This document shows, piece after piece, positions 1,536 through 20,000 of a DNA stretch of 20,000 nt. The notes beneath the pieces were generated by a model that ran no database searches, was not told where the DNA came from, and saw nothing but the letters and a program-made list of their open reading frames with translations. Every line of letters starts with the position of its first letter. The stretch's first letter is position 1. The position numbers and the translations under genes were made by a program. This DNA is from an uncultured virus (IMG/VR IMGVR_UViG_3300011211_000031) (taxonomy: Duplodnaviria; Heunggongvirae; Uroviricota; Caudoviricetes), in IMG/VR virus record IMGVR_UViG_3300011211_000031, positions 44,549 through 64,548 of that record; one strand, given 5' to 3'.

Positions 1536-2201
1536 TCAGGCGACCGGCGAGAGCAGCTCTTCCGTGTTGTTGCGCGGGGAGTTGACCGCCCGGCTCACAC
1601 GGTAGGCTTCCATCGCTGGCGTCTCGCTGGCCAGCAGCATGGCCATGGCGTCGTCGGGGTCTGCCGCCATCCATTCGTCCACCTGCCCGGGCTGCAGCCA
1701 CACCGGCATCCGGTCGTGGATGTCGGCCGACACGCCGCTGCTGTCCCCGGTGATGACGGTGAAGGTGCCGAGATTGCCATCGGGGAGCAGGGGACTGCTC
1801 TCCTCCCACAGCCCGGCCGCCAGCAGCGGGCCGGTTGCGTGGATGAACCACGGATCCTTCTTGCCGTCCTCAGGGCTCACAGACCATTCGTAGTACCCGG
1901 CCATCGGCACGACGCAGCGGCGTTTCTTGAACGCGGTGCGGAACGCCGGCTTCGTGGCCACGGTCTCGATGCGGGCGTTGATCGTGGAGCCCTGCAGGCC
2001 CTTCGCCTTCGCCCAGAAGGGAAGGAGGCCCCAAGCAAGCCGGGTGACCTGCCGGCCGGTGCCGCGGTCAAGGATGACTGACGCGCGCTGGGTCGGCGCC
2101 ATGTTGTAGCTGGCAGGCAGCTCGAGCAGGTCTTGGGCCAGGTCGGGCAGGCCGAGCTGGTCAGGCTTGAAGATCGGGGTCTGGACGAATCGGCCGCACA
2201 T
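1536..2201 (-). CDS. SOS response-associated peptidase (SRAP/YedK/HMCES family, abasic-site protection)
   Basis: N-terminal MCGRF, YNMAPTQ, WGLLP, INARIET, RRCVVPMAGYYEW, IHDRMPV, VSRAVN motifs; start moved from 2318 to ATG 2201 so that Cys2 is N-terminal. Confidence 0.95.
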   Translation of the reverse strand: MCGRFVQTPIFKPDQLGLPDLAQDLLELPASYNMAPTQRASVILDRGTGRQVTRLAWGLLPFWAKAKGLQGSTINARIETVATKPAFRTAFKKRRCVVPMAGYYEWSVSPEDGKKDPWFIHATGPLLAAGLWEESSPLLPDGNLGTFTVITGDSSGVSADIHDRMPVWLQPGQVDEWMAADPDDAMAMLLASETPAMEAYRVSRAVNSPRNNTEELLSPVA

Positions 2202-2290
2202 GGCCCGACCATAAGGTCGGACGCGTGATGGCGGCGCGTGGAGTATGCTCCTGCGCGGGGGGCTCCAAGGAAGACGACAGGGGTCATGGA

Positions 2291-2746
2291 ATGCCGATTC
2301 AAGCAATCGCCTACACAAGCGAGGCGGTGCCCGGGTTTGGCCTGGATGCAGCGGACGACCTGGCGCGCTGCGCAGCCGACTTCAACATGCATGCCGGCGT
2401 GACCGGACTGCTGCTGTTCGACGGTGCGCGTTTCCTCCAGTACTTGGAAGGACCAGAGGACGGCATCGCGGTGGTCTACAGCAGGGTGCAGAACTCCCAG
2501 CGCCACACCGGAATGGTGGAGCTCGGCCGGGCGCGGACTGGCCGCCGGCACTTCCCCTATTGGGCGATGCGCATGCTGCCTTCGGAGCCCGCTGAGCTGC
2601 GCGGGGCAGTCCGCAAGGACTGGTCCAGCTTCGTAGTGCGCCAAGCGGCGCCGCCGGGCGACGATCGCTACGGGTTGGAGGAACTAGCCCGCATCGTGGT
2701 TCCTCACCTCGGCCAGACGCCTGCAGAGGCGCCGCGCGTCGGGTGA
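2291..2746 (+). CDS. BLUF-domain blue-light sensor (stand-alone)
   Basis: IAYTS, FN-x3-GVTGLLLFDG-x2-FLQYLEGP, RH and R-x-F-x2-W-x-M motifs, with the conserved Tyr/Gln/Trp/Met; start taken at ATG 2291. Confidence 0.92.
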   Translation: MPIQAIAYTSEAVPGFGLDAADDLARCAADFNMHAGVTGLLLFDGARFLQYLEGPEDGIAVVYSRVQNSQRHTGMVELGRARTGRRHFPYWAMRMLPSEPAELRGAVRKDWSSFVVRQAAPPGDDRYGLEELARIVVPHLGQTPAEAPRVG

Positions 2747-2799
2747 ATCCTTCACCAATGTATCGGGCCGTGAGACTGGGCCGGCCTATGCTCCGCCGC

Positions 2800-3156
2800 A
2801 TGGACGACTCGCAGACCCTCACCCCCATGCCCGACGGCTTCTACTGGAAGCCGCGCTGCCACCTCGACACGCTTCCGACCGGCCTGTTCCTGCACGGTGA
2901 GATGGTTGCGACCATGCACCAGCGGATCGACGGCGCCTGGTTGGCCCGGCTGCACCTTGAGGATGGGGTTGACGCCCCGCTGGTCACCCGACGGTGCACC
3001 TCTTTCGAGGACGGCCGACGGGGGTGTGAGATGTGGGCGCTGCGCCACGAGAGGGCTTTGCGCAAGAAGGTCGCGATCAAGCTGCAATGGATCCAAGACA
3101 ACGTCGTCCTCCGCGGCCGGGGCCGGCAGTTGGGTGAGGCGGACCTTACGCACTGA
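2800..3156 (+). CDS. Hypothetical phage accessory protein, probably leaderless
   Basis: Plausible globular sequence; TATGCT -10 box 7 nt before ATG 2800 and no Shine-Dalgarno sequence. Confidence 0.7.
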   Translation: MDDSQTLTPMPDGFYWKPRCHLDTLPTGLFLHGEMVATMHQRIDGAWLARLHLEDGVDAPLVTRRCTSFEDGRRGCEMWALRHERALRKKVAIKLQWIQDNVVLRGRGRQLGEADLTH

Positions 3157-3213
3157 ACTGGACAGGGGGCTGGCCTTGTCGGAGTATTTGCCGCAGAGGG
3201 AGGGGCGCCCGGC

Positions 3214-3828
3214 ATGAGCATCCTCAATGTGCTGCTTACACCTGATCGGCTCCTGGTGGCCGTGGACACTTGGGCGGAAGACGCCCAGACCGGCGCTCAG
3301 TCAGCCGGTGCCAAGGTGCTGCTGATCCCGCAGCATCAAATAGTGCTCGCAGCTCGTGGCTCGGCGCAGTTTTTTCTGCACCTGTACCAGCGCATGTTGT
3401 TGGCCAGCTACCGGGCAAACTTCGGGCTTGAGCAGGTGATGCGCGAGACGGCTCCCCTGATTGACCAGCTCTGGCCAGCATACGAGGCGGCTGCTACTGC
3501 CTCTGGCGTGCCGCAGGATCGTCTGTGTACGGAACTTGTCCTGGGCGGGTGGTCCTACGGACAGGGGCAGATGGCGGCGTGTGCCTATGCCAAGGACGCG
3601 ACAGGTCAGCCTGCCATTGCGCAACCACTGAGTGGCGGCTTGGCATCGCCAGGCGAACCGCTGCGCGGGAGGCCGGATAGCTTCGCGGCTCCCGACGTTC
3701 TCGCCGCCGCCCGGCTGCAGGCCGCGTACTTGAATGCACAGGAGGGGCGGGGAGTGGCCGGGGGCCGCCTTATAACGGCTACCCTGACCGCTGGCCATGC
3801 CGCCATCTCGGACCTGGGGCCAATTTGA
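3214..3828 (+). CDS. Hypothetical protein with proteasome-beta/HslV-like Ntn-hydrolase signature
   Basis: RBS GGGAGG; after Met removal the mature protein has Ser1, Asp17, Lys33 and Gly48-Ser49. Confidence 0.6.
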   Translation: MSILNVLLTPDRLLVAVDTWAEDAQTGAQSAGAKVLLIPQHQIVLAARGSAQFFLHLYQRMLLASYRANFGLEQVMRETAPLIDQLWPAYEAAATASGVPQDRLCTELVLGGWSYGQGQMAACAYAKDATGQPAIAQPLSGGLASPGEPLRGRPDSFAAPDVLAAARLQAAYLNAQEGRGVAGGRLITATLTAGHAAISDLGPI

Positions 3829-3849
3829 TGAAGGCCCCTGACGCAGGCA

Positions 3850-4143
3850 TCAGTCCTGCTGATCCCCAAGCCGCGCCGCGCCCTCGATCTGCGTCGTCAA
3901 GGATGTCAGTGCCTGTTGGAATGCCGCGTGGTAGAGCGCGGAATGACCGCCTGCAATGACCTGCTCATCGGCCAGCTCGGGCAGGACGTGGGACCACAGC
4001 TCAGCCAAGGCTGATGGTTGGGGGTGGCGCGCGATGAGGGCATGGATCCCGTACTCCATGGCTTTGATGTAGCCTCGGCTTGCCTGCAGCTCCATCTCGC
4101 AGCGTTCGAGGCGTTCGATCAGCTCTCTTGTTAGGTCAGCCAT
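3850..4143 (-). CDS. Hypothetical helical protein
   Basis: 97-aa ORF with plausible composition, convergent on the previous gene; TAGACT -10-like box upstream. Confidence 0.7.
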   Translation of the reverse strand: MADLTRELIERLERCEMELQASRGYIKAMEYGIHALIARHPQPSALAELWSHVLPELADEQVIAGGHSALYHAAFQQALTSLTTQIEGAARLGDQQD

Positions 4144-4237
4144 GTCGATGACGTCTGGGCGCGACAGTCTACCCCTTCAGTCAGCTGCCGTTGCCTGCGT
4201 ATCGGCCCGTGCGACCGGCGGCGCTGACAATGGCGGC

Positions 4238-4450
4238 ATGACGAAGACGAACGTGAGAAAGGCGCGCTGGGCGCGCAGCAAGGCCGAGGATCTGCATCGG
4301 CAGGCCCGCGAATTAGAGCAGGACCGCAGCGGCGACTGGCAAGCCATGGCTCGCCGCCGGCGAGGGGCGGCACATTTGCGGCGGGAGGCCGACAGGTTCG
4401 ACTCCATGGCCTATCGATGGGCTGACCCCAAACTGACCCCAGCGGCGTGA
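4238..4450 (+). CDS. Small basic hypothetical protein, probably leaderless
   Basis: GACAAT -10-like box 6 nt before ATG 4238; Arg/Ala-rich helical 70 aa. Confidence 0.5.
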   Translation: MTKTNVRKARWARSKAEDLHRQARELEQDRSGDWQAMARRRRGAAHLRREADRFDSMAYRWADPKLTPAA

Positions 4451-4609: not shown

Positions 4610-5206
4610 ATGGACCATGGGATAACATCCGCGCTTATCGGCGCTGGCGCGGCTCTCCTCGTTGTATTAGTTACCGCTGCAGTAGCAGTCACGCAGCTGA
4701 GGCATGACCGTGAGCAAAGGGCAAAGGACAGGGCATTGCAGGCCAAGCGCGATCTGCTGATCGACGCCCTGAAATCGGCGATTATCGCAATGAGGTCCGG
4801 AAGCGATCTGGTCAGGCAGGAGGTAGACATCAATGCGGTCAGTGCAAAGTTCACGAACGCAATCGCGGCGATGAACGCAGCGAGCGCGGTCGCCAGCCTT
4901 GAGGTTGTTGCGCGTGGTAAGGACCTGGTTGCCACGATGGGGAAGCAGTACATGACCGCAATGGCCGTCAGAAGCACGCTTGCGCCTGACCTTATGCCGG
5001 AGCAGTTGGTGGATTTCGCGCTTGACGTGATCGAGAAGCAGAAAGAGTTTCAGCAGCCATTTGCGTTGCTTGTCGCGGCAGTTCGCAGGGATCTATTGAT
5101 CGAGGGGGCGGATGATGAGGCGGTTGCGAAGGCGCTGTGGATGAACGTGGACGAGATAGGGGAACATGCGCGAAAGACGTTTAAGGACCTGCTGGGGCGA
5201 ATCTAG
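4610..5206 (+). CDS. Hypothetical protein with N-terminal transmembrane helix and helical soluble domain
   Basis: GGAG RBS before ATG 4610; hydrophobic ALIGAGAALLVVLVTAAVAV followed by a charged helix; stop overlaps the integrase stop. Confidence 0.75.
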   Translation: MDHGITSALIGAGAALLVVLVTAAVAVTQLRHDREQRAKDRALQAKRDLLIDALKSAIIAMRSGSDLVRQEVDINAVSAKFTNAIAAMNAASAVASLEVVARGKDLVATMGKQYMTAMAVRSTLAPDLMPEQLVDFALDVIEKQKEFQQPFALLVAAVRRDLLIEGADDEAVAKALWMNVDEIGEHARKTFKDLLGRI

Positions 5207-6351
5207 GTCCCAGTGCAAAAGTCGGCCCATGAGTTCATCAACAGGCGGCGCTTCTCGATAAGTGCGCCGCGCCTGTACGCCGCCTCTGTCTTGTCCTTGA
5301 TGGCATGCGCAAGCGCCATCTCGGCAACCTCACCTGGAAAATCCGTCTGTTCTGCTGCCCAGTCACGAAAGCTGGATCGGAACCCGTGCACCGTGAATGG
5401 TAGACCGAAGCCCTTCGGCGACGGCTTCTGAAGCAGGTAGAGCATCGCGTTCTCGGAGAGTGAGAAGGGGGGCGCGGAGCGGGGCAGGCCTGCGAGTATC
5501 GCCGCTGCCGCTGGCGTCAGTGGCACGACATGTTCCCGGCCCCCCTTCATTCGTGACGCGGGCACGGTCCACAGCATCGCCTCCAGGTCGAATTCGGCCC
5601 ACGTTGACCCGGTGACCTCCTCGGTGCGCGCAGCCGTGAGGATGGTGAAGCGTAGCGCCCGCCGCGATTTCGCATCCCGTTCCGGCAGCCTGGCCATGAA
5701 GGCCGGCACGTCGACGAACGGCATGGCCGCATGGTGCCGCTTCGGCTTCACCTTGCTTGGCTTAGGGAGGAGATTCTCCAGGTGCCCGCGCCAGCGCGCC
5801 GGGTTGTCCCCTTCACGCAGGCCGTGAACCTTGGCCCAGTCCAGCACGCGCTCGATGCGGCCGCGCACGCGCGTCGCTGTCTCCGTCTTATTGGACCAGA
5901 TCGGCTTCAGGCATGCCATCACCACGGTGGTGTCGACCTGGGCGATCGGCAGCGACTCGGCTGGGCCGTAGTCCCTGAGCGACTGGGCCCATTGGTCGGC
6001 CTGGGCATTGTTCTTCCAGCCAGCGCGGTGCGCATCGATGTAAGCCTCTGCGGCTTGGCCAAAGGTGGCCCCTGCGCTCCGGGCCGCCCGGCGGGCGTCG
6101 ATGGGATCCTCGCCGCCGGCGAGATGCTTTCGATGCTCCAGCGCCGCGGCGCGCGCTTCCTGCAGGCTGACGACCTGAGTAGAGCCCAAGCCCATCTCTC
6201 GTAACCGGCCGCCGCGGCGGAAACGCAGCACCCACGACTTTGATCCTGCCGGCTTCACCAACAGGTACAGGCCACCGCCGTCGGCGTGATAGCCTTGCTT
6301 CGTCAGGGTCTGGACTGCTCTGGCGCTGAGCCGATTGATCGGGCGCGCCAT
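5203..6351 (-). CDS. int: Tyrosine integrase, P4-like family with arm-binding N-terminal domain
   Basis: DGGGLYL...GSKSW...MGLG...SLQEAR N-terminus; catalytic TAAR, RMK, HGFRSSF, LAH and AAYRR motifs. Confidence 0.96.
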   Translation of the reverse strand: MARPINRLSARAVQTLTKQGYHADGGGLYLLVKPAGSKSWVLRFRRGGRLREMGLGSTQVVSLQEARAAALEHRKHLAGGEDPIDARRAARSAGATFGQAAEAYIDAHRAGWKNNAQADQWAQSLRDYGPAESLPIAQVDTTVVMACLKPIWSNKTETATRVRGRIERVLDWAKVHGLREGDNPARWRGHLENLLPKPSKVKPKRHHAAMPFVDVPAFMARLPERDAKSRRALRFTILTAARTEEVTGSTWAEFDLEAMLWTVPASRMKGGREHVVPLTPAAAAILAGLPRSAPPFSLSENAMLYLLQKPSPKGFGLPFTVHGFRSSFRDWAAEQTDFPGEVAEMALAHAIKDKTEAAYRRGALIEKRRLLMNSWADFCTGT

Positions 6352-6485: not shown

Positions 6486-6500
6486 CCACTCTCTCCGCCA
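6486..6500 (+). other. attR core: duplicated 3' end of tRNA-Ser
   Basis: CCACTCTCTCCGCCA matches a Ser-type tRNA 3' end (G discriminator + CCA); no upstream T-loop or rest of the tRNA. Confidence 0.75.
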
Positions 6501-6552
6501 GATACGCAAAAGCGCCCCGAAAGGGGCGTTTTGCGTATCTGGCGGAGAGAGT
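6488..6552. terminator. Long inverted repeat (about 30-bp arms, GAAA loop) including the tRNA 3' end; terminator-like
   Basis: ACTCTCTCCGCCAGATACGCAAAAGCGCCCC-GAAA-GGGGCGTTTTGCGTATCTGGCGGAGAGAGT, one bulged base. Confidence 0.7.
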
Positions 6553-6796
6553 CGGGTGCCGAGACCGCGCGGGTTCGACGGATTCGCCAGGAGCGAACCC
6601 GGACAGCCGAATGGCTGGCCCTGGAGCGCGCAGCGCGGAAGGGTGAGGCGCATGGATGCGCCTCACAATCCCACTCGGTCTATCCGGAAGCAGCGTCGCC
6701 CGCACGGGGCGTTCTGCGTATCTGGCGGAGAAAGTGGGATGGCAGAAGCTACGCGGGCTCGACGGATTCGCCAGGGAGCGAATCCGGAAAGCCGAC
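6523..6796 (+). repeat. Two degenerate tRNA-linked repeat units, period 183 bp
   Basis: 6523-6610 is similar to 6706-6796 (GGGGCGTTYTGCGTATCTGGCGGAGA...CGCGGGYTCGACGGATTCGCCAGG...); internal hairpin GTGAGGCGCAT-GG-ATGCGCCTCAC. Confidence 0.75.
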
Positions 6797-7009
6797 TTCC
6801 CTACCTCCGTCGCCGATCACCTCGACGCAGAAGCGATCGATATCCGATTTCGCCCACAACCTGCGCGAGACCAGCTTCTGCTGCTTCGGGAATCTGCCCT
6901 GTGCCATTCGGCAGTAAATAGACGCCCGACTCAATGAGGTGCGGGCCATCGCGACCTTGATGTCTCGGAGTTTAGCGGCGAGATCGATCGCAGTCTTCTT
7001 GCCCTTCAT
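6749..7009 (-). CDS. AlpA-family regulator / excisionase-like protein, possibly degenerate
   Basis: AAGGAG RBS before ATG 7009; VAMARTSLSRASIYCRMAQGRFPKQQKL...LWAKSDID fits the AlpA pattern; C-terminus runs into the repeat region. Confidence 0.75.
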   Translation of the reverse strand: MKGKKTAIDLAAKLRDIKVAMARTSLSRASIYCRMAQGRFPKQQKLVSRRLWAKSDIDRFCVEVIGDGGREVGFPDSLPGESVEPA

Positions 7010-8987: not shown

Positions 8988-9857
8988 TCAGCATGCGTTC
9001 CCATAAGGCAAGAGTGGCGACGCACTATGGCGCGCGATGCACGACTTGGCGTGCCCGGCCAGGTGCGTTGGATGGGGGCGATGGATCGCAGAGGTAGGCA
9101 GGTTTAAGGGCTTGCCTTGGAGCGCGGCGTAGTCGGTCGCGAGCAACGACGGGGCAAGCGCCACAGTGTTCTCGGGCGTGACCCAGAGCAACCCGCAGTC
9201 GAAGAGCGTGTGGAGATCAGCTCGCAACAACAGGCCGTTGTCCAACCGGTTGGTGTGCTCGCCCTTGTAGGGCAGCACATGCGCAGCCTCCAACACTTCC
9301 ACCGCCGAGCACCCGGTGATGGCGCAACGACCGCCGTAGGCGTCCAGTAGCTTAGCGCGGAACAACGGTTGGCCCCGGCGCTGGGCTACCGCTCGCATCG
9401 CCCATACCCTCGCATCGTGGGTGCTATCCAGCGGCGCGTTGAACGCATCGGCTTGCGCCTCAGCCTCTGCCCTCGCTTGCTCGTCCATCGCCAAAGAAAC
9501 CGCTTGCCATTTTCGCTCGCCAATCGGCAGCAGATCCCAATGCCCGTGCCGGGCCGGGTTGAACAGCACGTAGCGGGTGCGCCGTCGTGGTCCAGAGTCC
9601 ACCAGCTTGAACAACACGTCGTGGGGGTGGCCTTGGTCGCTTCGGCAGCTCTCGCGGGCGTAGTTGTAGTGAACCCGGCTGGCACTGTTCACCGTGAACA
9701 ACTCCAGGTCGGCCCGGGCATTGCCTAGTGGATCGTTGGGAAACCGCTCGCGGTCCCAGGCTTCCACCTCCGCCAGGGTTGCACTGCCCAATTCGTTGAT
9801 CGCCTCGGCCGCGCGCCAATACTTCACCCGATCGCGCTTGTTGCGTGGTTGCGCCAT
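8988..9857 (-). CDS. HNH endonuclease (putative restriction-type, HNH_2-like) with unrecognised N-terminal domain
   Basis: RRGQPLFRAKLLDAYGGRCAITG...LEAAHVLPY...NGLLLRADLHTLFD; AGGAG RBS. Confidence 0.92.
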   Translation of the reverse strand: MAQPRNKRDRVKYWRAAEAINELGSATLAEVEAWDRERFPNDPLGNARADLELFTVNSASRVHYNYARESCRSDQGHPHDVLFKLVDSGPRRRTRYVLFNPARHGHWDLLPIGERKWQAVSLAMDEQARAEAEAQADAFNAPLDSTHDARVWAMRAVAQRRGQPLFRAKLLDAYGGRCAITGCSAVEVLEAAHVLPYKGEHTNRLDNGLLLRADLHTLFDCGLLWVTPENTVALAPSLLATDYAALQGKPLNLPTSAIHRPHPTHLAGHAKSCIARHSASPLLPYGNAC

Positions 9858-9926
9858 GGGCTAGCTCCTTTCTCCCAAAGTGCCATGCGGATCCACGGAG
9901 GCTCGGTAATGGCTTCCGTCGAGTAT

Positions 9927-12900
9927 TTACAAGGACGCAAAGAAGTGGCGACGCAAGACGAGGTCGCTTGCTAGTTGCCCGTAAGTGCCCGACAAGAATG
10001 CTTCCCGATGTTCGCTCAGCCCATCGAACGACCGCTGGATCGCGGCTTCAAATTCTTCGTCTGGATGCCGCTGGCTGCGCGAGAACGTTGGCAGTGGGGT
10101 TTTCTCCGGCATGTCTAGGGGGGGATTTCGGTGTGCCTCAAGTGCTTCTGACAGAGATTCGTAAGCGTCCTTGAAACGTGGGTCTTTCAATTTTTCCTTC
10201 AGGGAGATCTCCGATCGGGCAAGCTCCAACGCACTCTCTACCCTGCTTCTTTCCACAAAAATTCGGTGTTTCAAGTCGGACGTTGCGTTTTGCACAGCGC
10301 TGGCGCGGGAAACGTTGCGGTTGATCTCCGCCAGCCCATTGTTGAAGGATTCGAGGATGGAGGAAAGCGTTCGCCTGGGAGGTGCGGCCTGCGGAATGGA
10401 GACGTGTCGGACCGGCTGGCTCGGAGGCACCACCGGCGCGCGTTTGGGGAGCGGCGGTGGGGTGGCGAGTGGGGAGGGGGCTACGCCGCGTCGCCTCGGC
10501 TTGTAGCTGCAAACGGGGAAATTGGAACAGGAGCGAAACTCCCCATAAGGGCCGGTGCGCAACACCAGCACGCCTTGCTTGCAGGCCGGACACGCTTCTT
10601 CCTTGACGGTTTCGCCATCGGTGTCGGTGATCCCCAATATCCCGTCTTCCACCAACTCCCGAAGGAACATCGAGCGTTGGCCACGGGCGGTGAACATTGC
10701 CACGCTGCGGCGGGCCCGGGTCAGGGCCACGTAGAAGAGCCGGCGCTCTTCGCCCAGCGGGAACGTGTCCCCTTCTGGCATGGCCAGGGCCAGCACTGGA
10801 TCGTCGGTGCGGGTGTTGGGGAAGCTGCGTCGACGCGGGGCGCTGATCATTTCCGGAAGAATGACGTAGTCCGCTTCGCTGCCCTTTGAGCGATGGATAG
10901 TCAGGAAAGACACGTCTACCCAACGGTTGAACCGGCCTTGCCTCATCGGGACATACTGCTGATCAGCGTTGTAGCGGCCCAAAACGTAAATCGATACCTT
11001 GCCGTTGCGTCCCGGTTGGATCGTGCCATCGCGCACGCCCTCGGCCAGGTTCACCACGAATTGGTCGATTGCATCGGCCAGCTGGTCCTTGGTGTCCACT
11101 TGGAACGCTTGGAGCACTGGGCCCTGGGCAGGGGTGGCCGAATACACTCGCTTGGCAATCTGCCCACGGTTCTTGGAGACAAACGCACTGGAGACGTCGC
11201 ACAGTGCCTGGGGGCACCGGAACGTTTGTTCCAGCTTCAGCACCTGGCCGTGGCCAAACCACTGGCGAAAGCCGGTCATCACCGACACGTCCGCGCCGGC
11301 AAAGCGGTTGATCGACTGCCAGTCGTCGCCCACGGCGAAGAAGAAGCGGCCCTTCTCTTGGACCAGTGCGCGGCACAACCGGGCCCGAGCGCGCGAGGCA
11401 TCTTGGAACTCGTCGGCCATCACTAGGTCGTAAGGCGATTCCACGCGGCCGTTTTCCAGGTGGCCAGCGGCGAGGTTGAGCATGTCTTCAAAGTCGATGC
11501 CATCCTCTGCTGCCAAGGCTTCGTCCCACGCCGCCATCACCTGAGCCGCGATGTCCAGGAAAATCTGGTAGCGCAGCTTGAAGGTGTCGGCGGGCATCGC
11601 GTCCAACCGTCCCTGCAGGTCTGAGGGGCTCAGACCGTTGCTCTTGGCATGGCTCATGAACGTGCGCAACAGCCCAACGAGTTCGATGTCCGCCATGGGC
11701 TTTTGGCCCCCTTCGGGAATCTTTCGATATGGGTTGGGATCAAGCACCAAGCCTCGGGAAGTCAGTTCGTGCTCCAGGCGGTCAAGGTCGTCGCCGTGGC
11801 GCAACCCATGGCTGGTGGTCTCAAAGAGCGCGGTCCCTTTCTCCACGTGAAGCTGTCGCTTCCAGATCACCCCCTCCATGTAGCCTTGAAAGTGCGCTGG
11901 TGGCACGCCGCTGGCATCGAGCGCGAAGTGCTCGTGGAACAAGTTCAAGTCTGAGTAGTAGAAATCGGGCCTGTATTGCCGGTGCAATTCGTCGGCGGTG
12001 CGGTGGGGGTAGCTGGCCTCGTAGCAGTAGTTGACCCCGTTCAAGAAGAGCAGGTTGGCGATCATCACTTCTTCCATGCTCTTCACCCGCTCGCCCCGGT
12101 TGGTGACGAGCGCGCCCTTGCCTTGGGCGTCCCACACGTCCGAGGGCTCCGGTGCACCAAACGCCGGAAGGTCCTTGCCAAAGACGAAGCGGAACAGGTC
12201 CCACTGGCGGCGGAACGCGGGCGACCGGTCTTTGAGCTGGCCCACGATGTCGGTGAGCTTTCGCACCCCGCCGGCCGCATCGGTGGCCCACTCGGGAATG
12301 TCGGGCGTTTCCCCGGTGGCCTTGCCGATGAGGCGCAAACCCAACGCGTGGAAGGTGGAGGCCTCCACGCTCACCTCCGCCATGCCCAAGCGCTCAAACG
12401 CCAAGGCCGCGCGATCCTTGAGCTCTACGGCGGCTTGCTTGTTGAACGCCAGCAGGACGATTCGCTTGGGATCCACGAACCCGCGCTGGATGGCGTAGGC
12501 CGCCTTGGCCACCATGGTCGAAGTCTTGCCCGAGCCGGCCGAGGCCACCACCTGCACGCGGTTGTCGAAGCACACCACGGCCCTTGCCTGTTCCGGGGTG
12601 AGCGGTTTGCTCTCCACTCGGTCCAGCAAGTCTTTGCAGGCCACCAATTCGCGGTCCACGTGGGCGGCATTGAGCGCGGCCCATGCAGGGCGGTGGTCGG
12701 CTTCCCACGCGGCCAGCGAGCGCTCGATCGCCTGGGCAGCCGGTCCCAATCGAACCGCCACGCCGGGCTTTTTCAGGCGCGATCGAAGAACTGCCGCATC
12801 CATCTTGGGGCGGGCAGCGAGGACGTCCTCCTGCTGCTCGTGGGTGAACCAGCGGCGCTGCTCCAAACAGCCCCGCTCTTGATCTGCCTTGTGGTCCAGC

Positions 12901-13250
12901 CACGCGTCTATCGAGCACTGCTCGCCCTTGAGGAACGCCACGTCCTCACGCAGGCGTTTCTCTGCCAATGCCACGTTCAACGCTTGAACCAAGGCCGCGC
13001 GTTGGGCGTTGGGCAACCCGTCGGCCCTTACTTCCCGGCCCTGCCCAAGATGGAACGTGATGTCGGTCCAGAAGGTGCCGGTGTTGACGCGGTATGTGGC
13101 CTCGTCCTCGACGTTGACCCGGTGGGTGCACCCGTCCAGCGCCAAGGCGAGCTCCAAGCCCTCAAGGCGCAAACGCCAATCCGATGATCCCGTTACGTGT
13201 CGGCCCACCCACGACGGGGTCCATTCCTTCGCCACCCTTTTGCTGTCCAT
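9927..13250 (-). CDS. UvrD/helicase IV (HelD)-like SF1 helicase with inserted PD-(D/E)xK-like domain, topoisomerase-type C4 zinc finger and C-terminal extension
   Basis: Q motif LTPEQ, Walker A ASAGSGKT, LLAFN, STFHALG, Walker B ADEFQD, VGDDWQSINRF, TFRC, TIHRSKGSE, EERRLFYVALTRAR; insert KSMEEVMIANLL...YE...PDFY...HEHF; CPAC...GPYGEFRSCSNFPVC. Confidence 0.93.
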   Translation of the reverse strand: MDSKRVAKEWTPSWVGRHVTGSSDWRLRLEGLELALALDGCTHRVNVEDEATYRVNTGTFWTDITFHLGQGREVRADGLPNAQRAALVQALNVALAEKRLREDVAFLKGEQCSIDAWLDHKADQERGCLEQRRWFTHEQQEDVLAARPKMDAAVLRSRLKKPGVAVRLGPAAQAIERSLAAWEADHRPAWAALNAAHVDRELVACKDLLDRVESKPLTPEQARAVVCFDNRVQVVASAGSGKTSTMVAKAAYAIQRGFVDPKRIVLLAFNKQAAVELKDRAALAFERLGMAEVSVEASTFHALGLRLIGKATGETPDIPEWATDAAGGVRKLTDIVGQLKDRSPAFRRQWDLFRFVFGKDLPAFGAPEPSDVWDAQGKGALVTNRGERVKSMEEVMIANLLFLNGVNYCYEASYPHRTADELHRQYRPDFYYSDLNLFHEHFALDASGVPPAHFQGYMEGVIWKRQLHVEKGTALFETTSHGLRHGDDLDRLEHELTSRGLVLDPNPYRKIPEGGQKPMADIELVGLLRTFMSHAKSNGLSPSDLQGRLDAMPADTFKLRYQIFLDIAAQVMAAWDEALAAEDGIDFEDMLNLAAGHLENGRVESPYDLVMADEFQDASRARARLCRALVQEKGRFFFAVGDDWQSINRFAGADVSVMTGFRQWFGHGQVLKLEQTFRCPQALCDVSSAFVSKNRGQIAKRVYSATPAQGPVLQAFQVDTKDQLADAIDQFVVNLAEGVRDGTIQPGRNGKVSIYVLGRYNADQQYVPMRQGRFNRWVDVSFLTIHRSKGSEADYVILPEMISAPRRRSFPNTRTDDPVLALAMPEGDTFPLGEERRLFYVALTRARRSVAMFTARGQRSMFLRELVEDGILGITDTDGETVKEEACPACKQGVLVLRTGPYGEFRSCSNFPVCSYKPRRRGVAPSPLATPPPLPKRAPVVPPSQPVRHVSIPQAAPPRRTLSSILESFNNGLAEINRNVSRASAVQNATSDLKHRIFVERSRVESALELARSEISLKEKLKDPRFKDAYESLSEALEAHRNPPLDMPEKTPLPTFSRSQRHPDEEFEAAIQRSFDGLSEHREAFLSGTYGQLASDLVLRRHFFASL

Positions 13251-13291
13251 GCCCCGCGATCATCCAACGCCAAAGTGAGAAGCTGATCACG

Positions 13292-13657
13292 TCATGATAA
13301 AGCGTGAAGGCCTGCTTGGGCGGCCACCTTGGCCAGCGCAGGGCGCCAAGTCCCCTTGGCCATGCGTTGCTGGACACGGACGCGATAGGCGTCGGGTGAG
13401 GGGGCCGGGGTAGGGCGCTTGTGTCGCCGCAGGTTGCACAGGTGGCACGCGGCCACGACGTTGTCTGCCACGTCCTTCCCGCCGTCCTGGCGGGGCAGCA
13501 GGTGTTCTGCCGTGCACCGAAAAGGGGCGGCCGAACGGGGGCGCAGGCCCAACTCGTCGGGCGAGCACAGCCACATTGGACCGCTGCAGTAGTAGCAACG
13601 GCCTAGCTGGGCGTGAAAAGAATGGGTGCGCAGGGTTTTGAGGGTCTTCGTGCTCAA
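13292..13657 (-). CDS. Small HNH endonuclease with zinc-binding CxxC...CxxC
   Basis: GRCYYC...TAEHLLPRQDGG...NVVAACHLCNLRR; GGAG before a TTG start. Confidence 0.9.
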   Translation of the reverse strand: MSTKTLKTLRTHSFHAQLGRCYYCSGPMWLCSPDELGLRPRSAAPFRCTAEHLLPRQDGGKDVADNVVAACHLCNLRRHKRPTPAPSPDAYRVRVQQRMAKGTWRPALAKVAAQAGLHALS

Positions 13658-13765
13658 CGGCGGGCTCCGGAATCGAAAAGGATTCCCGCGCCCCCATTGG
13701 GTGGACCTCGGGCACCCGGAGCCTATTGGCTATGCGGGCACAACACCGACGCTTTAGCGACCGGC
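13658..13765 (-). ncRNA. Candidate structured leader / cis-regulatory RNA upstream of the HNH gene
   Basis: Hand folding gives several stems and an alternative 8-bp helix that hides the RBS; no known family recognised. Confidence 0.4.
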
Positions 13766-13771
13766 AAAGCC

Positions 13772-13800
13772 GTTATATTCCAGTCTCGCCGAGTATTCAA
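13772..13800 (-). promoter_or_regulatory. sigma70-type promoter for the HNH-helicase-HNH unit
   Basis: TTGAAT (13800-13795), 17 nt spacer, TATAAC (13777-13772). Confidence 0.65.
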
Positions 13801-13815
13801 TACATAGCCCAACGG

Positions 13816-14781
13816 CTAAACTTTAGTGGACTCGCGCCCATGGTATGCTGGCGTGCGCGTCGGTTGGTCCGTATCATCGCTAAGTCCTAGGCCCAATGAA
13901 CTGGCCGCCTGAAAACGTCCGCCACGAAGCCGTTCAGGCGGCGTTGAGCTCTTGGGCGACTGGTAGTCCAAGGTGGAGTGTAGCCGGGACGGATTGTAGA
14001 AGCCGAGGATGTAGTTGGTAATTGCTTTGCCAGCTTCTTCCTGCGTGGGGTAGACGCCACTGGCCTCTTCAGCCTTCAGCGTGGCGAAGAAGCTCTCGAC
14101 CACCGCGTTGTCCCAGCAATTACCAGGACGGCTCACGCTTTGGACAACCCCTCGCCGCTGCAGTAGCAGTTGATACTGGACGCCGATGTACTGCCCGCCA
14201 CGGTCGGAGTGGAAGATCAGGCCGGGCGTTTGCGGGTGTGCGCCCCAGGCATTGTTGAACGCCTGTACCACCAGTTCCTCGGTTATACGGGAGGAGACGC
14301 TGTAACCAAGCACCTGTCGGGTCTGCACGCTCACAACCACGGCCAGGTACAGCCAGCCCTGCTTGGTTGGGATATACGTGATGTCACCGACCCATGCCGC
14401 AAGGCCCGACCCAACGTCGAAACGGCGCTCAAGCAGATTGGCTGGAAGTGAACTCGGCGCAGGCGCCGATCTACGCTTGAAACCGCCTTTGATTTTGCCG
14501 CAGATCTGCTCCTGGGCCATCAGTCGCGCCACGCGCTTGGGGCCAATGCGGTGATTGCGGGCACGCAGCTCTTTGACCAACCGGCGCCGGCCATAGGTGC
14601 GCCGGCTGGCTGTATGGATACTCCGAAGTTCAGCACGTATGCCCGCGTCGGCATCGACCGCTGTGCTTTGCTTCATGCGGCGCAGGTAGTCATGAAAACC
14701 GGACGCTGACACGCGTAGCACCCGGCACAGCAGGCCAAGTGGGTACTGAGTCCTATGGGCAGCGGCGAAGGCGTATCTCAC
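13816..14781 (-). CDS. IS3 transposase OrfB (DDE domain); C-terminus reads through the right inverted repeat
   Basis: TYGRRRL, WVGDITY, FHSDRGGQY, WDNAVVESFF, FYN-x2-RLHSTLDY. Confidence 0.93.
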   Translation of the reverse strand: MRYAFAAAHRTQYPLGLLCRVLRVSASGFHDYLRRMKQSTAVDADAGIRAELRSIHTASRRTYGRRRLVKELRARNHRIGPKRVARLMAQEQICGKIKGGFKRRSAPAPSSLPANLLERRFDVGSGLAAWVGDITYIPTKQGWLYLAVVVSVQTRQVLGYSVSSRITEELVVQAFNNAWGAHPQTPGLIFHSDRGGQYIGVQYQLLLQRRGVVQSVSRPGNCWDNAVVESFFATLKAEEASGVYPTQEEAGKAITNYILGFYNPSRLHSTLDYQSPKSSTPPERLRGGRFQAASSLGLGLSDDTDQPTRTPAYHGRESTKV

Positions 14782-15132
14782 TTGGACTCTCTCGCAAAGA
14801 ACGCCGCCGCTTTTTTTAGGATTTCCCGCTCCATCCGCAGGGTGGCATTTTCCGCCCGCAGGCGACTGAGCTCGCTCTCCAGATCGGTAGCCTGCCGGCG
14901 GGTCTGCGAACTCAGCGACCGGCCTGCGCGGACGGCCTCGATCCAGTTGGTCAGGGTCTTGACCGAAATCTCCAATTGCCGGGCCGCGGCTGCCGGGCCT
15001 AGCGACTCGGCCAAGGTCACGGCCTGGTGCTTGAACTCATCTGTATAACTGCGGCGACTGATAGGGGACATGTGGACCTCCAAGTGCGACCAAGTATCGC
15101 TTCTTGGCGTACGTCCTTGGGGGGCCAGTTCA
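13897..15132 (-). mobile_element. IS3-family insertion sequence, 1236 bp
   Basis: Terminal inverted repeats TGAACTGGCCCCCCAAGGACGTACGCCA and TGAACTGGCCGCCTGAAAACGTCCGCCA with 5'-TG...CA-3' ends; orfA/orfB; A7G frameshift motif at 14810-14817; no flanking direct repeat. Confidence 0.95.
14778..15071 (-). CDS. IS3 transposase OrfA
   Basis: GGAGG RBS; RRSYTDEFK, HTH region, leucine zipper ELSRLRAENATLRMEREILKKAAAFF. Confidence 0.95.
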   Translation of the reverse strand: MSPISRRSYTDEFKHQAVTLAESLGPAAAARQLEISVKTLTNWIEAVRAGRSLSSQTRRQATDLESELSRLRAENATLRMEREILKKAAAFFARESK

Positions 15133-15838
15133 TGAGCGTCTCATTCTCGTTCACGCGAACGAGGATATGCAGGATCTCAAACGACGTGTTCGGCAGGAAT
15201 TGAAGGCGAGAGGGCAGGTGGATAAGGAAGACTTCACGTTTCGCTCTATCGGTAAAAATAAGGTCTTTCGTGACCTTGCGTTGAGCCGGGGTGATCAGGT
15301 CATCTTCAACGTCAAAGATGAAGGCCTGGATGTCATCAACGGGACCAAGGGGACGGTGAAGAGCATCAGGCGAAGCAGTGCGGGTGGGGTGAGCCTTGGC
15401 GTCGATATCGAGCGCACCGGGGTCACGAAGACGATCCGTTTTGACTCGCACTAATACAGTGCACTTGATCGGTCGTATTGCTCAACGATCCATAAGGCCC
15501 AAGGGCAGGGGAAGACCGATATCTTCCATCTAGGCCATGCTGGGATGACCGACAACCAGAGCGCTTTGGTGGCCTTTACCCGACTAACGAAAGGCAGCTA
15601 CACCTTATTTGCCGATTCGATGAGCCTGGACCAGATCAAAGGAAAGCTTGGGCAACAGCGGCTCAAAGAGAACGCCATCGAGGTGAAGAAGCCTATGCGG
15701 GCGAAGCGGCCCGACCTTAAAAACGAGTTTGAGCAGTTGGGTCAGCAGCTGGGGCAAAAATTAAAGGTCAATTCCGGCTTCGTTGAACGTTTGATCGCTC
15801 GTCGGCTAAGACAAGCCAGGGCTGCTCTAACACGTTGA
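15133..15838 (+). pseudogene. C-terminal helicase part of a TraA/MobA-type conjugative relaxase; 5'-truncated by IS3 with an internal stop
   Basis: ORFs 15104-15454 and 15545-15838 are in one frame across TAA 15452-15454; read-through gives GDQVIF...VINGTKGTV...YCSTIHKAQG...LVAFTR (RecD-like motifs V/VI). Confidence 0.8.
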
Positions 15839-16471: not shown

Positions 16472-16669
16472 ATGAATAACATCCCACATCCATTCTTGCT
16501 AACAGCTTTGCTTTTGAGCTTCGTCACCATGCTTGTGCTTTGGCCGAGCTATGGAGCCACGGGTGCTCAGCTGGCTGCATACATGACCTCAGCTGCTCTT
16601 GCACTGACCCTATGCCTAATGCGCTTTAGGAAGATATTGGAGGCAGAGCGAGTAAAGGCCGAGCGATGA
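16472..16669 (+). CDS. Small two-helix membrane protein
   Basis: AGGAG RBS; two hydrophobic segments; ATGA overlap with the next gene. Confidence 0.75.
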   Translation: MNNIPHPFLLTALLLSFVTMLVLWPSYGATGAQLAAYMTSAALALTLCLMRFRKILEAERVKAER

Positions 16670-17163
16670 GGTCTCGAAGCTTTGCACTCGTCGAGCTCAG
16701 CCTTGTAGTCGGGCTAGCTGCGATAGCCGGTCTAGGTGCCTGGATGGCCTTCGGTCCTACTTCCGCTGGCACCAAGGTCCAACAAGAAGCGGCAAATCTG
16801 ACCCAGCTGGCGGACGCCATCACTGCTGACTACGCTGTCGCAGTGGGGCGCTACCAGGGCGTTGGCGTGGCAGCGGCTGTCGAGCGCAATTTGGCACCGT
16901 CAGCTTGGGTAGAGGGCCAGGAACTGCAATCCCGGACCTTAGGAAAAATCGAGCTCTCACCCATTCAAGGAGGGCAGGGCTTCCGAATCACCGCGACTGC
17001 TGTCCAGGTCGAGCTTTGCTCTGGTCTCGTGCAAGTCGCTTCCAAGGCCTTCTCTGAGGTCCACGTCAATGGCGTGCTGGTCTACTCTCGCCGATCTCTG
17101 AATCAGACCGCGTTAGCAGAGAGCTGTGCTGAGGGTGGGGAAGTCGCGTTTGACCGGATCTAG
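16666..17163 (+). CDS. Type IV pilin, PilS-like
   Basis: Class III-like leader MRSRS/FALVE (Phe+1, Glu+5), hydrophobic helix, GFRITAT...ELC...V-x-VNG...SC C-terminal Cys pair. Confidence 0.8.
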   Translation: MRSRSFALVELSLVVGLAAIAGLGAWMAFGPTSAGTKVQQEAANLTQLADAITADYAVAVGRYQGVGVAAAVERNLAPSAWVEGQELQSRTLGKIELSPIQGGQGFRITATAVQVELCSGLVQVASKAFSEVHVNGVLVYSRRSLNQTALAESCAEGGEVAFDRI

Positions 17164-17935: not shown

Positions 17936-18993
17936 TTACAGCAGTCCTAGCGCTTGAAGGGCTCTCACTTCGACGATGTCTACCTCACCGTTGGGCATGG
18001 TCTCAGCCGTAAAAGGTGCGTTGACGAAGTAGTCTTCGCCCTGCGGTGTGATGTTAACGCCGGCATTGCCATAGCTCTCGATGACGACTTGCTTAAGCTC
18101 ATCAAAGACAGCGAGTCCTGCTTTGTCATCCATCCGATTCCAAGTGCTTCGCAGTGCTGTCCAGAACCGAGGGATCAACTCAGTAAGCCCTGAATCGGCA
18201 TAGGTCGGGCAAAGCACCTCAAGGTCCATCTCGTCCTGGTTGGCATCAAGGTGGCCGAGCAGATATGAGGCTAATTTAAGAGGCATAGCCGTGTGCGTGC
18301 CCGCTTGTATCAGCAGCGTGTCAACGCTGCCATGAACGCGGAAGTCCTTAATCTTGTACCTTGCTCGCTCAAGATACAGCCCAGCTGATTCGTCGAAGTT
18401 CTTCGCATATTGCTCCTTCAATGCCTCAACATCAGCGATAAAGCCGGTGAGCCGACATGCAGCATATTCCTCCCAAACGGCCGTTGTGTGTGTAGGAATA
18501 GGTTGTCGGTGAAGTTGCCGTCCTTAAGCTGTTCATCAAGCCCTGGGGCTGATTCGTCTCTCCATTTCAGCTCTGCAACGTGACCCAGCTCATGGGCAAT
18601 CAAGTGCAGTGCTTGCTTATAGCCAGGGCTTGTGTTGTCAACGATGTCCTGGATGAAGGCTGCGCTGTAGACGACATGTGTCTTCTCGATTCCGTCTCTT
18701 TTCACGCTTACGGCTTTGGCAATGCACTCAACTTCCGCAGTTGAAGTGAACGAGGGCGGTGATACGCCTGGCTCACCCATGTCAACGGCCGCAATGGCCG
18801 ACGCGAAGTCATACCCGACTGTCACGCCTGCCAGTCGCTCGAGATCTAATACGCGACTGCATACTGTAAGGGCGACAGATAGGTGCTCATAGAACACTTG
18901 AACGAACTCTTGGCTTGGGAACCCTAAAAGCGCAATTCTAAGGTTCTTGGGGACCGTCGAAGCTGGCATATCTTGTATTGTCTTTTTTTCCAC
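17936..18993 (-). pseudogene. HExxH zinc metallopeptidase-like gene split by a frameshift in a dinucleotide repeat
   Basis: IAHELGH in ORF 18418-18993; removing one CA from the tract at 18485-18493 gives LHTTAVWEEYAACRL... in frame with ORF 17936-18421, a 351-aa product. Confidence 0.8.
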
Positions 18994-19066
18994 AACTGGC
19001 TCCGTGGATAGTGAATCTTAGCCGGCAGCTGACCCTATAACAGCAGCTGACCGCCTGAGCTGTGAG

Positions 19067-19513
19067 CTAAGGACTTGACTCCACGAAGGCTTCTGCTTCC
19101 TTGGTCAGGCCATTACACCCAGAACCAAGGCTATCGTAGAAGTCGCCAAAATCACGTGTCATCAGAACGCAATGGATGCTGTAAATTGCAGATCGACGAA
19201 TGTAAAGCTGGTCGTCTGGGTTCTGCTCTTTTAAGAGTTCAAAGAACCTTGCCCTGCCCATGAAGTATTGGTAGTCCCGTTGAGCGGCAATGGCCTTCTG
19301 CGCAACGAATTCAAGCGGATAAATTTCGAGATACTGCTTGACCTCAGGATGGCGATCAAGTTCGCCGGCTTCGTGATGTATTTCATACATCTCGTGGAAG
19401 AAGTGTGCCTCCACAAGCTTGGTGCTGAAATTTGCTCCGTGATATGCAAACGAACTGATACCAAATGCCGCTTGCACCAATGCCTCCGCTATTGCCCTAT
19501 CGTCGCTTGACAT
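19067..19513 (-). CDS. Hypothetical protein
   Basis: GGAGG RBS before ATG 19513 (the longer ORF starts inside the IS); 148 aa. Confidence 0.75.
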   Translation of the reverse strand: MSSDDRAIAEALVQAAFGISSFAYHGANFSTKLVEAHFFHEMYEIHHEAGELDRHPEVKQYLEIYPLEFVAQKAIAAQRDYQYFMGRARFFELLKEQNPDDQLYIRRSAIYSIHCVLMTRDFGDFYDSLGSGCNGLTKEAEAFVESSP

Positions 19514-19552
19514 GTTGACCTCCGTGTAAGGAATGCCATCATAAGCCATAGC

Positions 19553-19580
19553 AAAAAGGTGGGGGCTCCCCCACTCAAAA
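19553..19580 (-). terminator. Intrinsic terminator-like hairpin
   Basis: Minus strand GTGGGG-GAGC-CCCCAC-CTTTTT. Confidence 0.6.
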
Positions 19581-19591
19581 GAGGAGCTCCC

Positions 19592-19920
19592 TGAACTGGC
19601 CCCCCAAGGACGTACGCCAAGAAGCGATACTTGATCGCACTTGGAGGTCCACATGTCCCCTATCAGTCGCCGTAGTTATACAGATGAGTTCAAGCACCAG
19701 GCCGTGACCTTAGCCGAGTCGCTAGGCCCGGCAGCCGCGGCCCGACAATTGGAAATTTCGGTCAAGACCCTGACCAACTGGGTCGAGGCCGTCCGTGCAG
19801 GCCGGTCGCTGAGTTCGCAGACCCGTCGGCAGGCTACCGATCTGGAAAGCGAGCTCAGTCGCCTGCGGGCGGAAAATGCCACCTTGCGGATGGAGCGGGA
19901 AATCCTAAAAAAAGCGGCGG
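19592..19920 (+). mobile_element. Second, inverted copy of the same IS3 (left inverted repeat plus orfA from ATG 19653), interrupted at 19920
   Basis: Near-identical to the reverse complement of 14804-15132; similarity stops just after AAAAAAAGCGGCGG. Confidence 0.92.
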
Positions 19921-20000
19921 TGGGCTCAACCGGTCAATGCAGCATCATCGGTGAACAACAATATCCGGGGGTGGACTGTGGGCATGGGAAGACCTGGGCT
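19921..20000 (+). mobile_element. Probable left end of an IS30-family element
   Basis: CTCAACCGGTCAATGCAGCA resembles IS30-type ends as I recall them; ORF start ATG 19984 (MGRPG...); only 80 bp visible. Confidence 0.5.

Follow-up and report, generated by a model that had tools for sequence, protein, structure and literature searches.

Three genes of a Xanthomonadaceae tRNA-Ser island read best as separate, swappable cargo, with a conserved leader RNA preceding the small HNH nuclease gene

In this study, we have followed up three genes in a 20,000-nucleotide stretch of DNA (hereafter the window) from an uncultured virus of the Caudoviricetes, positions 44,549 to 64,548 of IMG/VR record IMGVR_UViG_3300011211_000031. 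On its minus strand, three intact and co-oriented open reading frames (ORFs) encode a small HNH nuclease, a helicase IV-like protein and a large HNH nuclease, with gaps of 41 and 69 nt between them (Table 1). An initial annotation had proposed that they form one undescribed defence operon, and re-derivation returned the coordinates that it had given. The promoter it had placed ahead of the genes is present as TTGAAT, 17 nt and TATAAC, and TTG-N16-18-TA stands at the matching position in 18 of 18 relatives examined, among which the spacers are unrelated; a consensus promoter scanner skipped this site (2 promoter-like sites against 1.3 expected, neither of them here). The claim that no obvious internal terminator interrupts the genes was also borne out, the terminator signal being not above chance (6 found, 7.2 expected). 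By Pfam, the HNH domain, the helicase with a C4 zinc ribbon and the HNH_2 domain were recovered as described, and the nuclease-like insert of the helicase is a likely, not a proven, assignment. What had been overlooked, within the same coordinates, is a conserved structured leader at 13658-13766.

Table 1. Features of the window, with positions counted from its first nucleotide
Feature	Position	Strand	Description
Small HNH gene	13292..13657	-	121 aa, TTG start; Pfam HNH
Helicase gene	9927..13250	-	1107 aa; Pfam Helicase_IV_N + UvrD + Zn_ribbon_Top1
Large HNH gene	8988..9857	-	289 aa; Pfam HNH_2
Sigma-70-type promoter	13772..13800	-	-35 TTGAAT (13800-13795), 17-nt spacer, -10 TATAAC (13777-13772)
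Three-hairpin 5' leader RNA	13682..13766	-	P1 ~13765-13745, P2 ~13739-13714, P3 ~13712-13684
Ribosome-binding region (GGAG, TTG start)	13655..13681	-	Predicted pairing with 3' strand of P3 or P2
tRNA-Ser 3'-end repeat + hairpin	6486..6552	+	Attachment (att) end of adjoining prophage; left island edge
Prophage integrase	5203-6351		
IS3-family element	13897..15132	-	Pfam rve + HTH_Tnp_1, terminal inverted repeats; ~100 bp upstream of promoter

The virus record is 64.5 kb long, and its first 51 kb read as a temperate prophage whose att end lies at the tRNA-Ser repeat. The genes had been described as part of a tRNA-linked island; there is no tRNA gene in the window, but positions 6486-6503 repeat the 3' end of tRNA-Ser, and therefore the three genes sit in an island beyond the att end of the prophage. 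The island segment that holds them is flanked by an AlpA remnant and the IS3 element, and the named closest relatives of the locus are Stenotrophomonas and Xanthomonas records.

Our comparison of relatives speaks against a single three-gene system. Among 55 helicase loci (57 fetched minus two duplicates; a few end short on one side), the small HNH gene lies directly upstream of the helicase in six, the large HNH gene directly downstream in nine (eight by an automated count plus L091, which lay outside the minus-strand cut-off of that count) and both in four, with all three genes intact only in L007. Decay is seen in the other loci with the trio: the small HNH gene is frameshifted in L001, and the large HNH gene is frameshifted in L004 and a remnant in L003. 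Searches of 401 genomes of the family (one genome unscored in two of them) gave 51 matches to the small HNH, 35 to the helicase and 14 to the full-length large HNH; the small HNH gene stands directly before the helicase twice (both cases also found in the search for relatives), the large HNH gene directly after it four times, and the adjacent trio occurs in none of the 401. Other orders and partners are found as well, with the large HNH gene behind the small one and no helicase (L119, L120), Uzume in the equivalent slots of five loci, behind the small HNH (L034, L125), the helicase (L010) or the large HNH (L001, L090), and PDC-S29 directly behind the small HNH in L126. A single obligate system against phages or plasmids would explain the gene order common to the window, L001, L003, L004, L007 and a contig assembled from run X18, together with the tight spacing behind a single promoter, but the small HNH family is mostly found in prophages and islands without either partner, and co-occurrence largely refutes such a system, which we consider very improbable. 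The rare co-occurrence, the other orders and partners and the independent decay therefore do not support an obligate trio. Our best reading of these sequences is that the three genes are separate, swappable cargo of a Xanthomonadaceae tRNA-Ser island and not one machine. The defence role that had been assigned to the operon is plausible gene by gene and agrees with the defence genes found as neighbours, but does not hold for one three-part unit; as individual cargo, the genes probably act against phage.

The one link among the three genes that may be functional is that between the helicase and the large HNH nuclease. The nine helicase loci with a large HNH gene directly downstream all fall within the 20 closest, 4 of the 14 full-length large-HNH matches in the family sample directly follow a helicase, and the two genes are only a few bases apart in L001, L008, L009 and L089. 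Such a pair could be a two-gene defence system of the Gabija or Hachiman kind, in which a motor senses and unwinds DNA and its partner cuts, the small HNH being unrelated. We think this unlikely: 46 of the 55 helicase loci have no large HNH gene, 10 of the 14 large-HNH matches have no helicase ahead, L002, L003 and L004 combine an intact helicase with a large HNH gene that carries a frameshift or has decayed, and the helicase has a nuclease-like insert of its own. A complex prediction for the helicase core and the large HNH (score 0.00) is evidence neither way.

The small HNH protein has a CxxC motif at residues 21-24, E51-H52, N66, a second CxxC followed by N75, and a basic C-terminal helix that stops at W104. 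Across an alignment of 40 small HNH proteins the catalytic residues (E-H, N and N) are kept, and basic helices are conserved at both ends of the family. Its start codon is TTG in the window and ATG at the matching site in L002 and L003. The family comprises 175 clusters at 50% identity (E<=1e-30) and was present in 44 of 400 family genomes (~11% of the sampled Xanthomonadaceae) and in none of 150 other genomes drawn from the class. It has no match in 50,697 annotated phage records, relatives at 37-47% identity occur in 10 plasmid records, and viral relatives were found with the small HNH alignment, none with the single sequence. In Xanthomonas-like islands the gene often stands behind mobilisation genes, and elsewhere it is a prophage passenger beside methylases, terminases, lysis genes or integrases. 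Judged by sequence, the small HNH is a large stand-alone family of island and prophage passengers with a putative sigma-70 promoter of its own.

Upstream of the small HNH gene, DNA alignment reveals a conserved block of ~110 nt that runs from just past the -10 box to the start codon and folds as three hairpins, with near-invariant bases at the P2/P3 junction. In an ordinary (unfitted) alignment of 26 leaders, 84.8% of the cells are paired, against 32-51% in slid controls, and 0 of 500 shuffles reach this value. Both sides change in 10 of the 25 pairs of this alignment and in 20 of 25 in a model-fitted alignment of 39 leaders, where the fitting leans towards structure, and both counts are inflated, as changes among related leaders are not independent events. 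The leader beats the coding sequence in conservation in 144 of 153 pairs. A covariance model searched against 150 whole genomes returned 9 sites, 8 of them directly before a small HNH gene (5 being training or identical sequences); the ninth, inside an unrelated coding sequence, was discarded. In 84 independent viral and metagenome loci, all 19 model matches end <100 nt from the start of a small HNH gene on the same strand, and a retrained model gave 9 matches in 91 loci, all before family members, with none in 43 of 44 loci that have only weak HNH matches. Rfam gave no match at 13658-13800 (E<=1) and, at gathering score, nothing in 20 related loci except one tRNA. We take the leader to be a real, apparently undescribed conserved RNA that precedes the small HNH; the literature searched, outside which lie most subscription journals and supplements, holds no description of this RNA or of the helicase family as defence. 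We also considered whether the leader encodes a peptide and rejected this, since conservation is lacking at the ATG in P3.

The edges of this conserved block bear on how the module moves. Between the window and L005, identity is 100% in the leader and 98% over the first 312 coding bases and drops to 47% in the promoter region, therefore placing a reshuffling of the module at the leader boundary. A transposon made of leader and HNH gene, with defined ends, was considered and rejected: the 5' edge is sharp, but in 96 sequences no conserved DNA motif was visible on the 3' side, and recombination within the conserved leader is therefore preferred. L124 carries an orphan promoter and leader (13033-13114) whose HNH gene is lost after its first few bases, a sign of recombination or decay at the leader anchor. 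Separately, a second clade of the small HNH family has a longer conserved multi-stem RNA upstream (L138:1440-1582; also at L143, L239, L246, L249, L252, L141, L151, L160 and L162), in which both partners have changed in 10 of the 27 predicted pairs and for which, among the loci tested, Rfam gave nothing at gathering score.

The minimum-energy fold of the leader pairs the ribosome-binding region with the 3' strand of P3 or P2, a predicted translational OFF fold, and in 36 of 38 relatives this region is predicted to be less open than its counterpart in shuffled leaders, a count that the relatedness of the leaders again inflates. Since pairing of the ribosome-binding site excludes the conserved hairpins, the layout is that of a translational switch, and we infer from these folds that leader and small HNH constitute a translationally gated nuclease. 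In run X24, whose strain carries a paralogous copy, depth in the leader bin is 57 on one strand and 3 on the other (the former being sense if the library follows the usual convention), 174 reads continue from the leader into the HNH start, 15 reach beyond the start of the leader, and 22 molecules have their ends at 13754, in the P1 loop. These reads show a transcribed 5' leader, not regulation. In type I toxin mRNAs, 5' leaders sequester the ribosome-binding site, and translational riboswitches work alike. The module shares with the toxin mRNAs a long structured leader, a predicted hiding of this site and a potentially toxic gene on mobile DNA; it differs in that its product is an HNH nuclease, its motif belongs to no Rfam family and no antisense antitoxin or ligand was identified, a consensus scan of the window having given no antisense promoter near the leader.

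A different role for the leader, which concerns the small HNH gene only and is compatible with a cargo array, would be that of the RNA partner in a ribonucleoprotein. The small HNH would then bind its own 5' RNA as antitoxin or scaffold, much as in type III toxin-antitoxin pairs or in OMEGA nucleases and their RNAs, and thereby also repress translation. The near-invariant P2/P3 junction, the finding of the RNA only with this HNH, the basic helices at both ends of the protein, the second clade's RNA at the matching position and the X24 molecules that end in the P1 loop would all suit such a complex. Nevertheless, reads continue from leader to coding sequence, and thus do not demonstrate a small RNA in its own right, clipping next to two strain differences may account for the ends at 13754, there is no repeat array, post-leader terminator or variable guide-like 5' segment, and no IS200/IS605 transposase (Y1) was found among 142 neighbours in 60 non-redundant viral and metagenome loci; overall we judge a ribonucleoprotein improbable. 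IshB has a PLMP N-terminus, an IS200/IS605 context and RNA-guided cleavage with an omega-RNA, and the HEARO RNA is in Rfam. The small-HNH core gives weak matches to IscB and Cas9d profiles, and the combination of a small HNH protein and a conserved, structured RNA ahead of its gene is reminiscent of IscB and of IshB, an OMEGA protein which the accessible part of its description gives as a small HNH protein of ~180 aa with an omega-RNA (PMC11610941). As far as that text allows comparison, the window protein differs in its 121 aa, in an alignment that starts ~20 residues before the first CxxC with no PLMP-type N-terminus seen, in an 85-110-nt leader without Rfam match or guide-like segment, and in that the adjacent insertion sequence (IS) of the window is IS3.

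The helicase has Walker A K242, Walker B D613-E614, a Top1-type C4 zinc ribbon (885-917) and an insert at ~380-500, and both Walker motifs and the four zinc Cys are kept across a 50-sequence alignment. Within the insert, S391-E393-E394, P428-D429 and E440-H441 are conserved in 45-50 of 50 homologues; as a test for a PD-(D/E)XK nuclease, SxEE, PD and ExH are kept, and the third motif is E-H-F rather than ExK. The whole-helicase fold without alignment was unusable (predicted local distance difference test, pLDDT, 38); residues 190-925 were modelled (pLDDT 90.5, 50 sequences), and the insert of this model shows the alpha/beta order of a PD-(D/E)XK core; its best fold matches are Rep, UvrD and PcrA, fold searches giving helicases only. 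T7 endonuclease I is weakly matched (E 0.02-0.14) by four of six inserts scanned, the window's own insert not among them, and the insert finds no meaningful match in the PDB by sequence and only clusters without names in the Atlas. From motifs and model together, the insert would be a PD-(D/E)XK nuclease of the T7-endonuclease-I or junction-resolvase type, an assignment that is likely, not proven. A C-terminal helical extension (~936-1107, the last ~170 residues) is optional, being present in 37 of 120 close homologues. No Pfam family matches this extension (window 9927-10445), which stands as an ORF of its own in the Xanthomonas loci L002 (10916-11425) and L003.

Several known helicases resemble this protein in part. 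Its best NCBIfam match is DNA helicase IV (PRK11054; 342.5 bits against a cut-off of 543, E 5e-102), and it shares the Helicase_IV_N domain with E. coli-type helicase IV (HelD), the closest profile, from which it departs in scoring below the cut-off, in its ~170-aa nuclease-like insert and zinc ribbon, and in its patchy occurrence, with copies on islands. The closest working model is Nhi (SERP2475), likewise a nuclease and a superfamily 1 helicase in one chain; in the part of its description that is accessible, Nhi is a 606-aa DUF2075, Dda-like helicase with an N-terminal PD-(D/E)XK nuclease, is found in defence neighbourhoods, needs both activities for protection and is proposed to degrade phage replication intermediates (10.1101/776245). 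Set against that description, the window helicase belongs to a 920-1107-aa, UvrD/Rep-like helicase IV family with an internal nuclease-like insert and a Top1 zinc ribbon; it carries helicase and nuclease-like motifs alike but has no DUF2075 match (E<=0.01), and its N-terminus is Helicase_IV_N. Gabija, in the accessible text, consists of the OLD/TOPRIM nuclease GajA and the UvrD helicase GajB (PMC13069673). On that description, the likeness lies in a UvrD-family helicase beside a nuclease, with Rep and UvrD as top folds and partial matches to GajB models (best E 4.8e-38), no PADLOC model covering the whole helicase (both among the best 25 of 48 matches); the window helicase is, however, about twice as long, has its own nuclease-like insert and no fixed partners, and no match to GajA was found, its neighbours being HNH and HNH_2 proteins. 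Hachiman combines HamA (DUF1837) with the superfamily 2 helicase HamB, as the accessible text on it has it. Septu pairs the ATPase PtuA with the HNH protein PtuB, and Zorya II the membrane motor ZorAB with the HNH protein ZorE. The Pfam families of these three systems are absent from our three proteins, and PADLOC reported none of the three systems for the two HNH proteins, nor among the best 25 of 48 matches for the helicase. More generally, PADLOC assigns none of the three proteins to a named system (for the helicase, again among those best 25). The terms HNH and UvrD do not occur in the accessible text of a survey that covers defence islands in S. maltophilia (PMC11680222).

Chosen neighbours of the helicase relatives, scanned with no background set, include Gabija, type IIG and type IV restriction-modification, DRT1, Olokun, ShosTA, SEFIR, Lamassu and PD-Lambda-4. 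Relatives also occur in Clostridia and in Pedobacter, in the latter among sugar-hydrolase genes. These last records, the helicase IV profile and the commonness of a chromosomal paralogue in Stenotrophomonas would be expected if the helicase were a repair or recombination enzyme hitch-hiking on islands and the HNH genes selfish or neutral rather than anti-phage. Island copies keep the nuclease residues, however, and sit among many unrelated defence genes, and the small HNH retains its catalytic residues and a strongly conserved leader; we regard this explanation as quite unlikely. Degenerate inserts in some lineages of the chromosomal paralogue (L016, L093-L099) suggest possible domestication. 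In two unrelated loci (L239:3679-5238, L108:11722-14751), distant helicase relatives are convergent to a small HNH gene, which may reflect a shared niche or a loose link.

Type IV, modification-dependent restriction enzymes of the sensor and HNH_2 type join an N-terminal sensor domain for modified DNA to an HNH_2 nuclease. The large HNH protein resembles them in its layout, an N-terminal domain followed by HNH_2, as far as sequence allows a comparison in which only the HNH part matches. Its DUF7669-like N-terminal domain is weak in the window (E 0.11) and above cut-off in 3 of 8 relatives. The 'HNH endonuclease' of PDB 6yex matches the HNH part only (E 1.7e-9), and NF045808 scores 42 bits against a cut-off of 180. 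A ~130-aa domain without Pfam match is fused before many large-HNH relatives (L007:11390-11790, L119:8919-9320, L120) and stands alone in L061:1863-2252, convergent to a small HNH gene.

Taken together, we find it fairly probable, from sequence and models, that independent cargo genes stand here behind one promoter: a small nuclease held by its leader, a helicase-nuclease acting on branched DNA and a type-IV-like large HNH. The small HNH module would be self-contained, with its own promoter, structured leader and small nuclease. In the OFF state, the finished mRNA is predicted to fold with its ribosome-binding site paired; in the ON state, P2 and P3 would form and free this site. The cue that shifts the fold would most likely be phage infection or a stress on DNA or transcription, and the released nuclease, if toxic, would cut DNA in abortive infection or island addiction. 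The helicase-nuclease would track on single-stranded DNA and cut branched replication or recombination intermediates through its insert, the island copies probably targeting phage or plasmid DNA. The large HNH would be a type-IV-like restriction nuclease with an N-terminal sensor, often but not always behind the helicase. With gaps of 41 and 69 nt, transcription from the leader promoter probably extends to the downstream genes here, and leader and HNH gene, being conserved, may serve as a recombination anchor that reshuffles flanking genes on either side. It is also conceivable, though rather doubtful, that the small HNH and its leader form an undescribed and widespread immune or addiction module of one gene, with the RNA as its sensor. 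The three-hairpin fold would bind a cue from the phage, or the nuclease, and change from blocking the ribosome to an open state, which would release a DNA-cutting effector that here stands at the head of an array of defence cargo; if true, at least two unrelated RNA folds across clades would define a new RNA-controlled HNH class outside the IS200/IS605 OMEGA lineage.

A number of observations count against the cargo array with a leader-held nuclease. The relatedness of the leaders affects covariation and occlusion counts alike, and the leader model is silent in 65 of the 84 independent loci, some of which have a different conserved RNA and others none recognised. The sole informative RNA run, X24, holds a paralogous copy and not the window locus, and runs X21, X5 and X18 (five reads, or contigs only) are silent on co-transcription. 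Nine of the 20 closest helicase loci have a large HNH gene adjacent to the helicase, two subtypes of it being represented, so that these two may be coupled, and the defence-gene neighbours come from chosen ORFs. Finally, a helicase paralogue at 66-73% DNA identity is present in at least 78 of 121 Stenotrophomonas genomes, often beside metabolic genes (zinc dehydrogenase) and sometimes with a degenerate insert; this frequency, these neighbours and the degenerate inserts therefore point to a repair or recombination role of the helicase family.

Further features were noted in the rest of the window. Following the tRNA-Ser repeat (window 6486-6800) are two degenerate copies of the downstream hairpin region at ~184-nt spacing, and these copies and the AlpA remnant (~6840-6950) are traces of repeated integration. 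On the other side, two inverted IS3 copies (13897-15132 and 19592-20000; 329 nt, 97% complementary) bracket a stretch of low GC content (51-55%), which holds a PilS-like type IV pilin gene (window 16666-17163); the first copy interrupts a RecD/TraA-like fragment at 15104-15454. Three minus-strand ORFs at 17936-19654 have no match in Pfam, PADLOC or NCBIfam, and one of them (18418-18993) has an HExxH motif and may form one gene, split by a break, with 17936-18421. The prophage end (window 1536-4450) encodes a SRAP protein, a BLUF blue-light sensor and small ORFs, and a 204-aa ORF there (3214-3828) is met again close to islands in L001, L005 and L006.

In conclusion, our results correct a plausible-looking defence operon to a shuffled array. 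The small HNH gene marks variable island slots rich in defence genes and offers a handle for finding more of them, and the helicase IV-like protein, which has an endonuclease-I-like domain inside it, is a candidate for an enzyme that acts in defence or repair as a single protein. RNA-associated small HNH proteins also bear on the origin of RNA-guided nucleases. The predicted folds suggest that the leader may keep the small HNH nuclease switched off until needed, and an RNA that gates a nuclease, if true, would give phage defence a trigger at the level of RNA, or else be a new riboswitch-like motif.

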